Virus record (IMG/VR): IMGVR_UViG_646311923_000012
Reading direction: 5' to 3' (one strand)
DNA length: 64,000 bases
Origin: a virus
Taxonomy: Duplodnaviria > Heunggongvirae > Uroviricota > Caudoviricetes
Shown: piece by piece, positions 30,001 through 36,000 of the stretch
How positions within the stretch are numbered: the first letter of the stretch is position 1
Layout of the letters: every line of letters begins with the position of its first letter
Position numbers: made by a program

Positions 30001-33000
30001 GCGAAAAATATTTTGTATGTTCAATCCAATACCCTCTGTCGTAGAGGTGTCATGCATTGGTGGATAAGTCATTTCAAGCTCAAAATATGCTGTCGCTATA
30101 TCATCAGCGATTTTTTTGCGCCCTACCCTCGGATAAAGCAGCCACGCATTCATCGCCATGCGGATGTGCTCATGCTTGATTTTCATGAATCAACTCCCGC
30201 CGCTGCTTGTGCGTTAGCCTGATACTCAACAGGTAAACCATCGGTTGGATTAGGGTATTTATCAGGGCGCAATTCATGCGGAGTTACTCCCCAGTCAAGC
30301 GCCTCACATGCTGGTATAACCTCCTCCGCTGGCACTCGTTTTTTAAACCACCCACTTATGGTTTGCGGTGTTTTACCAAGACGACGCCCTAATTCTGATT
30401 GGCTCATTATTGACAGGATTTTCACTTGAGTACTTTTTTGCATGTTTCCCTCCGAACTTTACGATGACACCGATAATTACAAATTTAAATTTAAATTTCA
30501 ACTTCTATTTGTAATGCCACTTATCAATTTTTTCTGTAGGATCGCGGAACTAGTTTACGAGGGGTGGTGATGATCTTTGTAAAACGCCTTCAGCAGGTGT
30601 TGCAGGAATTGAATATAAACCAGTCAGAGCTGGGAAGACGTCTTGGTGTAAAACCCCAATCCGTGCAAGGTTGGTTGAAAGGCGTGATGCCAAGAATGGA
30701 TAAACTGGAAAAATTAGCAGAGCTCTCACAACATCCCGTCCATTGGTTCTTTATGGAAGAAGAAACTCTCGGCGATAAAATGGCTGTATCCAGTAATGAC
30801 AACCAACCGCAACTTACAGAACAACAACGAAAAATCATATCGCTTTTAGATGAGTTACCTCAAAGCGACGCAGAGCAGATCATTCGTGATATGGAGCAAA
30901 AACGCGATTTCTATAAACGGAAACTTGAAGAGTTACTGCGGCAGAAAAACAAAACTGCCTGATGCATTCCTTTTCTGGAACGAGCATCAGGCAAATGACT
31001 AGCAGATTTTATAATCCAACCAGGCTTTCCAGGGGGATACCAAATTGATTATGAAGACGGCGAATCATTGGTAACGTAAGGCTTCTGGTACCATTCAACA
31101 CCTCATAAACCCGATTTTTTTTCCCAATTGCGGGTTCCAAATCTTTCACAGTCAGCCCCTGCTGTTCCATGCGAAATCTTATAGCTTCAATTGGGGATGG
31201 TGGCTCAATGGGATAATGTTTTTTTTCATATTCCTCTATTAGCAAACACATCACCTCAAAAAAATCCCCCTCAGGCGTGTCAATTTCGGGCTCATTGTCG
31301 AACATGGGTTCAACAGCACGCAACGCGGCTTCATAATCTTGCTCTGTACGAATAGGTTTGATGTTCATGCTTACTCCAGTTCGATGGTATCAGCATCAAT
31401 AGCATCGTATTCCTTGTGGTTTCCGATGAATTTAACAAATACCCATCCTCGCTGATACGCAATTGCAACAATTAAACGGTAATGATTACCTTTTATGTTG
31501 AATACCACGCGCCGGTTTTTCAATATACTGGCCGTTCGGTATTGTGCCTTAATGTCTGCTGGGCTTTTCCAGTCAGCTTTTGCCGCCTCATCCACCCATG
31601 CCCTTAGCGGTTGTTCTGCATCAGGATTCTCCGCCCAAAAATCCCTGAGTGTTTTAACTGAGATAATCTTCATAACTGTATAGTAGTCCCATTTTGGGAC
31701 TGATGCAACAGCCCGCAATTACAAATTTAATAATAAACATGTTGACCAGTTAAATTTTAATTTGTAAATTGTATCCATAAACCCACCCCGCCCCACAGAA
31801 CGCAGGGCAATACTTCGAGTTACCCGGCAGTGGTCAGGGGTTAAGTAGCCAGCCTGAGGCGTATGAACATGACGGCGGGGATTACGTTTAACTATGCAGC
31901 AGGTTTTTTGTTCCGCTACCCCGGCGTTAAGGGGAAACAGAGGATTTCTCAGTGGGCGAAGTCAAACATCAGAATGGAAGGCATCCAGGGATCAGCAAAG
32001 AAACAGCGATGGCGCTTTATATTGATATCAGCGCCATTGCCGGACAGGTAAGAATTATCAGAGCGGTAACTAAGCGGTATGCGCCTTTACTTCAGAAAGT
32101 CTCTGGTGAGTGCACCGAAGATATTGTCAACGATTTCGTCATCAAACTGCGAGGACTCATCTTCAGTTACAAGGTGACCACAATTTTTGCAGATGGCTCC
32201 CGCGAAACTGTCAGAGCCATGCGGTTTAAAGGATGTGTCAAAGACTTCGCCACCACATTCTGGGCAAGAAAACTTGATTGTATTCATAACCAATTTCCTC
32301 TCGAGTAACAGACCCCTCAGAGGATACCACCTCGCCTGACGTGGTTAAAAGCAGGCAGCGCTAACCACAAGGAGCCGACATGCAGAAACGAGAACCCGTC
32401 ATCATCGCGCCAGACTATACCGATGATGAACTTTATGAGTGGATGCACCAGAAAATTAAGGCAGCGCAGGACCTGAAATGGGCCAATGAAGCCAGGGCTA
32501 AGCAGGCTGAAAATCTGTCCGCTCTGGAGCAGGATATCACCAATCTGGAAAAAGCAGCGGCATTAAGCATTGCCAGAATGATTACATACCCGCGTTAATA
32601 GCTAACCAACGAAGCTAAGGTTGGTAATTAAGGAGTTCTCCACGGGTGAGGTGGAGTGCGTGCGCCGGACACGGGTGAGCATCCGGCACTGACAGTTTAC
32701 TGAAAGGATATTTCCCTGAAAAGTCAGACCATAACGCGAAAGCGCACGGCGAGGTAGCTGGTTCATAGATAGCCTGTCGTTAAATTTTCGTCGACCGTGC
32801 GCTTCCGGTTGTGGCAATCCGCGAAATGGCGCGGCGGTAAGTATGGCGGGGTTATTCCTTCCCCAGTTGAGGACACCGGGTTGTCAGGTTGACCATACGC
32901 TTAAGTGACAACCCCGCTGCAACGCCCTCTGTTATCAATTTTCTGGTGACGTTTGGCGGTATCAGTTTTACTCCGTGGCTGCTCTGCCGCCCTTTTTAAA

Positions 33001-36000
33001 GTGAATTTTGTGATGCGGTGAATGCGGCTCAGCGCACGCGGAACAGTTAAAACCAAAAACAGTGTTATGGGTGGATTCTCTGTATCCGGCGTTAATTGTT
33101 AACTGGTTAACGTCACCTGGAGGCACCAGGCACCGCATCACAAAATTCATTGTTGAGGACGCGATAATGGAAACGTTATTACCAAACGTTAATACGTCTG
33201 AAGGTTGTTTTGATATTGGTGTTCTGCTCAGTAACCGGGAGTTTACTGAAGATGCCATTAATATGAGGAAATATGAGCCTTATCTGCTCAATGATAATTC
33301 CATACTTTCCCGAATTGCTCTTCTTGAACTTGGTATTTTCGGAGAACGTCAATAACTTCAGCATTTGCACTGATGATGACGGTTTTTCTTATAACGGGTG
33401 AATCACAGAATGTGATTACCGGAATTTATGCCAGTAAAGAATCCTGCCTCCAGGCAAGAGACGAGCAAAAAATTTCTGGTGAATGCCTCCCGGTAAAAAA
33501 AGTATCGCTGTACCTGAATAACGAAACACCGGCTGGATAACCCTCCAGCCATATTAACACCATACCAACGGATTAAAAATGCCAGCAATGGCAGGGATTC
33601 GTTCACCCTGAAATCTGTAATGAGGTAAAACAAAATGAGTAAAGTCTTTATTTGCGCCGCCATTCCGGACGAACAGGCAATAAAGGAAGAAGGTGCAGTC
33701 GCTGTAGCCACTGCCATTGAAGCCGGTGATGAACGTCGCGCCCGCGCAAAATTTCACTGGCAATTCCTGGAACATTATCCGGCTGCTCAGGACTGCGCTT
33801 ATAAATTTCTTGTTTGCGAGGATAAACCCGGTATTCCCCGCCCTGCCCTCGATTCCTGGGATGCTGAATATATGCAGGAAAACCGCTGGGATGAGGAGTC
33901 TGCTTCCTTTGTCCCGGTTGAGACTGAATCAGATCCGATAAACGTCACTTTTGACAAGCTGGCCCCTGAAGTACAGAACGCTGTCATGGTTAAGTTCGAC
34001 ACATGTGAAAACATCACCGTTGATATGGTGATTAGCGCGCAGGAACTGTTGCAGGAAGACATGGCAACATTCGACGGACATATCGTTGAAGCGTTGATGA
34101 AAATGCCTGAAATTAACGCTATGTATCCGGAACGCAAACTGTTCGCTATCGGATGGGTTAAACACAAATGTAATCCGGGTGCCAAATGGCCCGAAATTCA
34201 GGCTGAATTACGTAACTGGAAAAAACGGCAGGACGCAGAGCGCAAAGAGACTGGAAAATACACGTCTGTTGTTGATCTCGCCAGCGCCAGAGTCAATCAA
34301 CAGAACACTGAAAACTCAGCAGGAAAAATCAACCCAGTCACTGCCGCCATTTGTCGCGAATACAAGCAGACATGGAAAACGCTGGATGAAGAACTGGCCT
34401 ACGCTCTCTGGCCTGGTGATGTGGATGCCGGAAACATTGACGGCAGCATCCATCGCTGGGCAAAAAATGAAGTTATCGACAACGACCGCGAAGACTGGAA
34501 GCGTATCTCGGCATCAATGCGCAAACAGCCTGATGCCCTTCGCTACGACCGCCAGACTATTTTTGGCCTTGTCCGTGAACGTCCGATCGACATTCACAAA
34601 GACCCTGTGGCACTGAACAAATACATTACTGAATACCTGACTACAAAGGGCGTGTTTGAAGATGAAGGAACAAATCAGAGCGCAACTGATACTCTCTCGT
34701 CGCCAGTACCAGAAACTGATGCAGTGGAAACGGCAATTCCGGACAACGAAAAAACCGAATGCAAAGTGGAAGTCGAACCATCTGTAGAGCGTGAGGGGCC
34801 GTTCTACTTCCTCTTCACCGACAAGGATGGCGAAAAATACGGTCGCGCAAACAAACTTTCTGGTCTGGATAAGGCACTGGCTGCCGGGGCTACTGAAATC
34901 ACGAAAGAAGAATATCTTGCCCGCAAAAACGGAACATACACGGACTTACCGCAAAATGTGGATACCGCTGAAGATTCCGTACAACCGGAGCCGGTAAAAG
35001 TTACCGCTGACGAAGTAAACAAAATTATGCAGGCAGCCAATATCAGCCAGCCTGACGCCGATAAATTGCTTGCTGCATCACGTGGTGAATTTGTTGAAGG
35101 GATTAGCGATCCGAATGATCCGAAATGGGTGAAGGGGATTGAAACCTGCGATTCTGTGAACCAGAACCAGCAAGAATCGGAACAGAACGACCAGAAAACG
35201 GAACAAAACAGCCCAAATGCGCAACAAAACGAGCCAGAAACGAAACAGGAGCCGGAAAAAGCCTGCACCGCCTGCGGTCAGACCGGCGGCGGTAGCTGCC
35301 CTGATTGTGGTGCGGTGATAAGTGACGCAACATACCAGGAAATATTCGATGAAGAGAATCAGCCTGAAGTTCAGGAAAATGATCCGGAGGAAATGGAAGG
35401 CACTGCGCATCAGCACAAGGAGAACACTGGCGGCAATCAGCATCATGCCAGCGATAGTGAAACTGGCGAGGCGTCAGATCCCTTAATTAAGGCGAACGGT
35501 CATCATAATCTCACATCCACCAGCAGAGCGGGGATTCATCTGATGATCGACCTTGAAACCATGGGAAAAAATCCTGATGCCCCGATTATCTCAATAGGTG
35601 CAATATTTTTCGATCCGCAAACCGGAGAGATGGGGCCAGAATTCAGCAAAACTATCGATCTGGAAACTGCTGGCGGAGTCATTGATCGGGACACCATTAA
35701 GTGGTGGCTGAAACAGTCACGCGAAGCGCAATCCGCCATTCTTACCGATGAAATCCCGTTAGATGATGCACTGCTGCAATTACGGGAATTTATCGACGAA
35801 AACTCCGGTGAATTTTTTGTTCAGGTCTGGGGTAACGGTGCAACTTTCGACAACGTGATTTTACGCCGTTCATATGAACGGCAGGGGATCCCCTGCCCGT
35901 GGCGTTACACCAATGATCGCGATGTAAGAACGATGGTTGCTCTGGGACTGGTGATGGATTTCGACGCAAGAACGACTATTCCATTCGAAGGTGAACGCCA

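Follow-up and report, generated by a model that had tools for sequence, protein, structure and literature searches.

In a 64,000-nt stretch of Caudoviricetes DNA (IMG/VR record IMGVR_UViG_646311923_000012; 'the window' hereafter, at its full length), two open reading frames (ORFs) occupy the same DNA on opposite strands at the head of an early phage operon: a plus-strand ORF of 118 codons and, nested wholly within it, a minus-strand ORF of 66 codons with a zinc-ribbon motif (the Zn ORF; coordinates in Table 1). Our comparative analysis indicates that these ORFs are probably a genuine nested antisense pair of protein-coding genes. Substitution patterns among related sequences show that both frames are under purifying selection, and both have conserved start signals. 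The overlap is most likely dual-coding and not an annotation artefact, which would most likely add a new and unusually well-conserved case to the small set of known antisense overlapping gene pairs.

An earlier note, made from the window sequence alone, had described the Zn ORF as fully antisense within the 118-aa plus ORF, which it is, and had left the conflict between the two strands unresolved. That conflict is genuine, and public annotation is itself divided: GenBank phage records and PHROGs pick the plus ORF, and the Prokaryotic Genome Annotation Pipeline (PGAP) and NCBIfam pick the Zn ORF. The zinc-ribbon motif is likewise real (CPEC at residues 8-11, CKNCGH at residues 33-38), and the Shine-Dalgarno sequences that the note had judged plausible on both strands are present (AGGA 8 nt before the Zn ATG; GAGGA 7 nt before GTG 31952). 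The note had also allowed that only one strand might prove real; for this pair, the comparative evidence points the other way.

Comparative evidence for purifying selection in both frames

The two ORFs use the same triplets: their middle codon positions fall on the same base pair, and the first position in either frame is the third in the other. An antisense ORF in this register is unremarkable by itself, because with the codon usage of the window the chance that the opposite frame stays open is 0.25 for the plus frame over the overlap and 0.42 for the Zn frame. Stop-codon avoidance is therefore uninformative and was rejected as a test; the significance of the pair comes from comparative data, not from the single sequence.

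The conserved unit is a cassette of ~360 bp (about 31995-32350). We found relatives of it in E. coli (many variants), Citrobacter amalonaticus and Klebsiella, C. freundii, Enterobacter hormaechei, K. michiganensis, one Serratia genome and several metagenome contigs, with amino-acid identity to the window as low as ~40-50%. Both ORFs are open in every one of the ~9 deep lineages, one of which carries a 4-codon in-frame deletion, and the plus ORF is unbroken in 50-53 unique sequences, save one frameshifted metagenome contig. In Citrobacter and Klebsiella the cassette comes after cro, within a PR-type operon; elsewhere it supplies the first gene past the repressor in a PL-type operon. In all three genomic settings the plus ORF runs in the direction of the early operon and the Zn ORF in the opposite one. 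The most distant relatives of the plus ORF, P0042 and P0043, are 35-40% identical to it (the W of the FWAR motif is L in P0043), and their DNA was not found in viral or metagenome collections.

The substitution pattern among these relatives switches at the Zn ORF boundary. By parsimony (Fitch) counts, the changes at plus codon positions 1/2/3 number 41/30/69 in the part of the plus ORF that codes in that frame only (32009-32086), as expected of a coding plus frame, and 115/29/69 across 32090-32287, as expected of a coding Zn frame (Zn position 3 being plus position 1). Nei-Gojobori ratios agreed with this: the plus frame had 0.44 outside the overlap and 0.70 within it, against 0.31 for the Zn frame within the overlap. 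Since the triplets are shared, each mutation along a tree reconstructed from 53 unique sequences could be classed in both frames, with the neutral rate taken from doubly synonymous sites and from synonymous sites outside the overlap. Mutations that are silent in the plus frame and alter the Zn protein occurred at an observed/expected ratio of 0.38 (95% confidence interval [CI] 0.29-0.50), and those that are silent in the Zn frame and alter the plus protein at 0.67 (CI 0.51-0.89). The ratio was 0.20 (CI 0.14-0.28) for mutations that are non-synonymous in both frames, and 0.41 (CI 0.30-0.57) for plus-non-synonymous mutations outside the overlap. When the like-for-like mutation class was taken from DNA where the plus frame alone codes, it gave 0.56; the plus constraint within the overlap is therefore comparable in size. 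An imaginary antisense frame outside the Zn ORF, used as a control, showed no effect. A tree-free pairwise comparison of the deep lineages gave 0.48, 0.57 and 0.76, the last of these, for the plus frame in the overlap, being borderline (CI 0.56-1.03). The comparison thus supports purifying selection attributable to each frame separately, with the plus value in the overlap borderline in pairwise form.

Between the Zn stop and the minus-strand hairpin described below, the 14 plus codons that lie outside both features have an omega of 0.45 (P(>=1) = 0.0005), and the conserved Gly and Ala residues of the plus protein use all four of their codons. In the Zn protein, C8, C11, C33 and C36 are invariant in all members, with one lineage having CTEC instead of CPEC. 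Their codons vary only between TGC and TGT, which is silent for the Zn protein and an Ala/Thr change in the plus protein, and the plus-frame fourfold third base at these codons is A in 53/53 sequences. Four Zn fourfold sites (P9 CCA, G37 GGT, V40 GTA and T41 ACT) hardly vary; in the plus protein the same triplets encode W, T, Y and S.

The signals for starting each gene are conserved as well. An internal ATG of the plus ORF (32009), which would give a protein of 99 aa, is kept as a start in distant lineages, where it is preceded by a GGAG-type Shine-Dalgarno sequence; that sequence is weak in E. coli, which has a good one before GTG 31952. The Shine-Dalgarno sequence of the Zn ORF is conserved between lineages. 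Upstream of the Zn ATG a block, GCCTG..TT(C/A)ACCAC.TCAGGC..GGTGGTATC(T/C)T, stands out from DNA that is otherwise unalignable between lineages. In the promoter-like element predicted for the Zn gene, which has a spacer of 16 nt, the T-A-T---T of the -10 is invariant in 8 lineages and the TGn is found in 6. A palindrome, ACCAC-N10-GTGGT (32327-32342), is also conserved inside the predicted promoter spacer; it could be a protein-binding site, and as such a candidate would imply regulation or autoregulation.

At the other end of the predicted Zn transcript lies a hairpin whose stem is kept in nearly all lineages. Where its arms vary, bases that still pair on the minus strand, as G.U, are mismatched on the plus strand, as A.C, and one E. 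coli variant has a U8 tail after the hairpin. Because pairing is better on the minus strand and a U tail follows, the hairpin appears to be a terminator acting on the Zn transcript. It includes the plus-gene AUG at 32009, and its U-rich tail complements the purine-rich ribosome-binding region of the plus gene. Co-transcription of the Zn gene with the neighbouring higBA genes was also considered and is thought unlikely, because the hairpin and the dicBp promoter region (see below) lie in between.

The two ORFs belong to two separate families, NF047912 for the Zn ORF and phrog_21318 for the plus ORF, both of them uncharacterised, and the records of these families, as far as seen, carry no remark that the same DNA encodes both. 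The match of the Zn ORF to NF047912 spans profile positions 1-56 of 60, for which PGAP uses the name 'ECs_2282 family putative zinc-binding protein'; a further match of this ORF is to the N-terminus of a 194-position profile, phrog_4852 (E = 5.5e-10). PGAP reverts to the plus ORF wherever the Zn frame has a stop, and the same Citrobacter and Klebsiella contigs have yielded proteins of both ORFs with NCBI names. The plus protein is basic and predicted to be alpha/beta, and it belongs to a small family, with 7 representative clusters at E < 1e-10 in a set of 1.8 billion proteins. Structure prediction with AlphaFold2 (AF2), one of the checks proposed in the earlier note, was run for both: from 12 sequences, it gave the plus protein a helix-helix-hairpin-helix arrangement with a core predicted local distance difference test score (pLDDT) of 70-75, and the Zn model was poor.

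Searches aimed at function returned little. For the pair, sequence searches of Pfam, NCBIfam, PHROGs, PADLOC and PDB brought up nothing beyond uncharacterised families and zinc-ribbon noise below threshold, and all Pfam zinc-ribbon families score below their cut-offs for the Zn ORF. Neither ORF has a match to N, cIII or Kil families in Pfam, NCBIfam or PHROGs. There is no significant match among the PADLOC defence models, where the best is PDC-M14A for the Zn ORF (16.9 bits, E = 0.0015) and the plus ORF has none. Foldseek against BFVD returned nothing at E <= 0.001, the Zn model being too poor for a fold search, and a scan of GTDB genomes returned just two zinc-ribbon matches, both unrelated. 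We found no paper on ECs_2282 and no publication on this locus, which is not mentioned in the papers checked on overlapping genes of enterohaemorrhagic E. coli.

Weighing the single-gene and regulatory-element alternatives

Because of the frame-specific substitution results, a functional plus gene alone and a functional Zn gene alone are both poor fits. If only the Zn gene were functional, the plus ORF would be an antisense 'shadow', staying open since the Zn gene need only avoid TTA, CTA and TCA codons, and its conservation would be a by-product of constraint on the Zn frame and on the Zn 3' untranslated region and terminator. Several results lean this way: the Zn frame dominates the substitution pattern of the overlap, plus constraint there is weak (pairwise CI up to 1.03), the plus frame would be open across the overlap by chance with a probability of 0.25, PGAP and NCBIfam favour the Zn ORF, and the conserved block and the predicted Zn transcription unit occupy the same DNA. 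We nevertheless regard a shadow as unlikely. It does not account for the plus-frame constraint on the 14 codons that separate the Zn stop from the hairpin (omega 0.45, P(>=1) = 0.0005), where all four Gly/Ala codons are used, or for the depletion of Zn-synonymous changes (0.67, CI 0.51-0.89). The plus start codon and its GGAG-type Shine-Dalgarno sequence are kept in distant lineages, the ORF is unbroken in the 50-53 unique sequences bar the one frameshifted contig and co-oriented with the early operon in three contexts, and the AF2 core of its protein reaches a pLDDT of 70-75. The converse, in which the plus ORF is the only gene and the Zn ORF a chance antisense frame that resembles a zinc ribbon, would agree with the choice of phage annotators and PHROGs, with the direction of the operon, with a premature Zn stop in 516 E. 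coli genomes and 19/99 IMG/VR loci, with the poor Zn model and with the 0.42 chance of an open Zn frame. It is very unlikely, however, given that plus-synonymous changes altering the Zn protein are depleted (0.38, CI 0.29-0.50) and that this effect is absent outside the Zn ORF. Variation in the overlap peaks at plus position 1, the third position of the Zn codons, and at the four Cys codons the plus fourfold site is the same base in 53/53 sequences. The length, stop position, Shine-Dalgarno sequence, promoter-like element and minus-strand hairpin of the Zn ORF are all conserved, and its protein matches NCBIfam (57 bits) and the phrog_4852 N-terminus (E = 5.5e-10).

It is also conceivable, if highly improbable, that neither protein matters and that the 360-bp block is a cis-acting RNA or DNA element, for example an antisense RNA like lambda OOP. 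Such an element would explain why the promoter-like element, palindrome and hairpin are conserved, and the predicted minus transcript does span the ribosome-binding site of the first operon gene. A cis-acting element would not, however, be expected to show three-base substitution periodicity in both parts of the block, the many codon changes that preserve the amino acid, or two ORFs that are unbroken at 40-50% identity, and Rfam gives no match in 31990-32350.

A pair of protein-coding genes has its own difficulties, and the following points count against it. The Zn frame is interrupted in part of the E. coli copies. A nonsense allele at Zn codon 14 (32246-32248, GAA>TAA, which changes F to L in the plus protein) occurs at 18/99 IMG/VR loci in four sequence backgrounds and in 516 complete E. 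coli genomes, compared with 849 that have the intact 38-mer, and a second allele (E44 to stop) occurs at one of the 99 loci. The codon-14 allele is often in the second prophage of a strain that also holds an intact copy; an allele this common shows that some prophages can do without the Zn protein. The poor AF2 model of that protein has a pLDDT of 54.6, with three short strands and a C-terminal helix, and the family and structure-database searches above gave no homologue of known function for either protein. The Zn promoter-like element matches the consensus at 8/12 positions only, and several lineages have 5-6 nt between the hairpin stem and the U-tract. A generic promoter and terminator scan reported neither Zn signal, because of the 8/12 promoter match and a hairpin loop of 13 nt. 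Plus-frame constraint inside the overlap is modest, and its pairwise value, as noted above, is borderline. Finally, the selection estimates come from ~9 deep lineages and ~500 inferred changes, by parsimony on one neighbour-joining tree of mosaic, recombining phage DNA, with a neutral reference drawn from ~94 events.

The surrounding dicBF operon

The operon that the pair opens is a known one. On sequence evidence, positions 31717-33540 are an early-left ('dicBF') operon, predicted to be repressed by DicA, in a Qin-like lambdoid prophage of E. coli. This identification was made because DicF (Rfam), DicB and DUF1482 (Pfam), the PGAP annotation of 100%-identical DNA, the operators and promoter, and the dicBF literature all agree with it. 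The order is operator/promoter, first gene, ydfC, DicF small RNA (sRNA), dicB and a ydfD-like gene, followed by the exonuclease gene, the same arrangement as in dicBF of the K-12 prophage Qin (PMC5069750, PMC10448788). Across 601 bases of this region the DNA is 100% identical to a prophage of E. coli E2865, and the region is present, whole or in parts, in 3,437 of 5,426 complete E. coli genomes.

Table 1. Features of the antisense pair and of the dicBF-type operon, in window coordinates.
Feature	Position	Strand	Description	Basis
Plus-strand gene	31952..32308	+	118 aa from GTG; first in operon	phrog_21318, 222.6 bits
Zinc-ribbon (Zn) gene	32087..32287	-	66 aa, acidic; nested antisense in plus gene	NCBIfam NF047912, 57.2 bits (cut-off 37); PGAP annotation
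Promoter-like element, Zn gene (predicted)	32321..32348	-	-35 TTAACC (32348-32343), TGn (32329-32327), -10 TATCCT (32326-32321)	Conservation
Terminator of Zn transcript (predicted)	31995..32042	-	Hairpin 32042-32004 and U-rich tail 32003-31995 (GUUUCUUUG)	Folding
OL-like operator	31717..31767		Inverted half-sites TTACAAATTTAA / TTTAATTTGTAA	Inverted repeat I10, 92% complementary
dicBp-like early-left promoter	31742..31770	+	TTGACC-17-TAAATT	Promoter scan
ydfC	32380..32598	+	72 aa	PGAP 'protein YdfC' on 100%-identical DNA; phrog_1744, 134 bits
DicF sRNA	32941..32992	+	With intrinsic terminator	Rfam RF00039, 75 bits (gathering score 48), model positions 1-52 of 52
dicB	33167..33355 (stop included)	+	Cell-division inhibitor, 62 aa	Pfam PF05358, 125.5 bits; NCBIfam NF049927, 114.2 bits (cut-off 100)
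YdfD-like DUF1482 gene	33373..33540	+	55 aa	Pfam PF07358, 48.6 bits (cut-off 25); phrog_1092, 100 bits
DicC-like gene	30183-30443	-		
DicA-like gene	30564-30962		Helix-turn-helix protein	NCBIfam NF007257, 50.1 bits (below DicA cut-off 101)
HigB/HigA pair	31009-31718	-	Between repressor gene and promoter	

Much of what the earlier note said of this stretch can now be sharpened. The ORFs that it listed all exist, small coordinate errors aside, and they do lie downstream of an OL-like operator/promoter and upstream of the exonuclease. That operator is supported by the half-site TTACAAATTTAA, which flanks the TTGACC-17-TAAATT promoter and recurs at 30476-30515 between the divergent dicC-like and dicA-like genes; the promoter itself corresponds in placement to dicBp of Qin (PMC10448788). 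The coordinates given for ydfC were correct, and those for dicB ran to 33358, where the true end is 33355 with the stop. The note ended its region at 33540, which is the stop of a fifth ORF, the ydfD-like gene, that it did not mention. Its description of the cluster as uncharacterised, with no ORF resembling a family that could be named, fails for three ORFs (DicB, YdfC and the DUF1482/YdfD-like protein) and overlooked the DicF sRNA (terminator-like site at 32975-32990); most of the cluster consists of known genes. The note had also named a match to N, kil or cIII analogues as a result that would count against its reading. Such a match was found downstream, because DicB, YdfC, the DUF1482 protein and DicF were identified there and DicB is the kil-like division inhibitor of this phage type; the overlapping pair gave none in Pfam, NCBIfam or PHROGs. 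A 62-aa plus-strand ORF at 31863..32051, with which the noted stretch opens, was rejected as a gene. It overlaps the plus gene out of frame, in DNA where the plus-gene frame holds the coding signal, and is spurious because it contains stop codons in 34/50 homologous sequences.

Compared with the Qin operon of K-12 (dicA/dicC, dicBp, ydfA-ydfB-ydfC-dicF-dicB-ydfD), the window has the same divergent DicA-like and DicC-like regulators, the same repetition of the operator at the second promoter, and ydfC, DicF, dicB and the DUF1482/YdfD-like gene in the same order with an exonuclease next. It differs in three respects. It lacks ydfA (DUF1391) and ydfB, and the antisense pair sits in their slot; K-12 and phages such as Tritos have ydfA/ydfB in this first slot, and versions with DUF1391/ydfB are found elsewhere, in genomes and in phages. 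The window also has a HigBA cassette that separates the repressor gene from the promoter, and its DicA-like protein scores under the NCBIfam DicA cut-off (50 vs 101 bits).

Several other parts of the region vary between prophages or carry signals of their own. Between the DicA-like repressor gene and the dicB-type promoter, prophages differ in their toxin-antitoxin cassette: HigB/HigA here, PaaA2/RelB-ParE elsewhere and none in PPompW phages. The 5' leader of the operon (31780-31937, plus strand) shows 88-93% conservation across most of the 3,437 E. coli genomes with a match and has no annotation, and a mosaic breakpoint falls at ~31915-31925, directly upstream of the cassette. The ydfC-dicF spacer (32600-32940, ~340 nt) is variable; PPompW/Stx2a phages have an insertion in it (phage positions 3212-3830) with two annotated ORFs on opposite strands whose ends overlap. 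Between DicF and the dicB start, 32990-33199 (plus strand) gives a full-length but sub-threshold match to STnc100, a Salmonella sRNA family (37.7 bits vs gathering score 47, E = 1.7e-5). Further downstream, the 816-aa 'exonuclease' (33635-36085, plus strand) carries an Rv2179c-like 3'-5' exoribonuclease domain at its C-terminus (221 bits), matches exodeoxyribonuclease VIII only in part and has an internal CTACGQTGGGSCPDCG motif. The integrase gene (36373-37392, plus strand) is intact in the window; the E2865 copy (9594-9968), whose cassette matches that of the window at 100%, is truncated by an IS3 element, so the window derives from another copy or strain.

Proposed expression of the pair and comparison with known antisense genes

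How might two genes share this DNA? The plus gene (99-118 aa) would be read as part of the early operon, and the Zn gene would use its own extended -10 promoter-like element, Shine-Dalgarno sequence and hairpin terminator. We suggest, tentatively and from the arrangement of these predicted signals, that the two genes may be expressed alternately. With DicA bound, only the Zn transcript would be made. This transcript would be complementary to the entire plus gene, its ribosome-binding site and AUG, and because of that complementarity it could also damp leaky expression of the toxic operon. Once dicBp becomes active, the Zn gene would be silenced by convergent transcription and by pairing of the sense and antisense RNAs.

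A further conjecture, which we regard as rather doubtful, is that the cassette is a self-contained, mobile two-state switch at the mouth of the early lytic operon. Two proteins with opposed or complementary roles would then be encoded on the same triplets, and the prophage state (Zn on) and the derepressed state (plus on) would be mutually exclusive through convergent transcription and RNA pairing, with the Zn transcript also holding back the toxic dicBF operon as an antisense RNA. Roles in exclusion or anti-defence are conceivable for the two proteins, by analogy with the olg1/gene 10 pair of phage Fc02 discussed below.

Whatever the proteins do, a nested pair of coding genes at this site would matter in several ways. 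The dicBF operon of E. coli prophages, O157 strains included, is a genetically tractable and medically relevant setting, and there are single-base separation-of-function alleles. C32158A, found in nature in one IMG/VR contig, turns E44 of the Zn frame into a stop and keeps a Leu codon in the plus frame, so that it would be Zn-null and plus-silent; G32153T turns a Gly codon of the plus frame into a stop and leaves Ser45 of the Zn frame unchanged, so that it would be plus-null and Zn-silent. The locus also exposes a systematic annotation problem, in that the ORF chosen by pipelines depends on the allele. For the rest of the stretch the result is corrective, as ydfC, DicF, dicB and the ydfD-like gene are ordinary and already known.

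Antisense transcription beside an immunity region has familiar precedents. In lambdoid phages, OOP acts opposite cII in lambda and sar opposite ant in P22; both are non-coding antisense RNAs of the immunity region that cover part of their target. Like the transcript predicted here, each is a short transcript with its own promoter and an intrinsic terminator, complementary to an early-operon gene by the immunity region. The predicted Zn transcript differs from them in that it is ~320 nt long, spans the whole target gene and would itself encode a conserved protein.

The closest described architecture is that of Pseudomonas phage Fc02 (B3-like), in which two opposite-strand coding genes, olg1 and gene 10, lie on the same DNA beside the repressor gene, one on a lysogenic transcript and the other in the early lytic operon (PMC9936078). 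Both are reported to be translated and active in superinfection exclusion (PMC9936078). The host and phage type are different, and expression and phenotype were measured for Fc02, whereas the evidence here is evolutionary alone. We found no sequence similarity to the Fc02 pair, which was looked for no further than family searches.

Embedded antisense genes have also been described in E. coli O157:H7 (ano, asa and others) and in P. aeruginosa (PMC5960689, PMC6294744, PMC9927249, PMC8850804), and they have a similar design: a short ORF fully embedded antisense, with its own promoter, Shine-Dalgarno sequence and terminator. For the Pseudomonas cases purifying selection has been argued for both frames. 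The locus studied here is not mentioned in those of the papers that were checked. Those genes are described as novel or recently evolved, whereas the present pair is conserved across several enterobacterial genera at 40-70% identity and moves as a cassette between phage contexts. Well-supported opposite-strand protein pairs in bacterial and phage DNA are few and contested, and most proposed ones are young and lineage-restricted. The pair in the dicBF operon stands apart from these in its presence in several enterobacterial genera, in its behaviour as a unit that moves between PL-type and PR-type positions, and in the separable selection on both of its frames.

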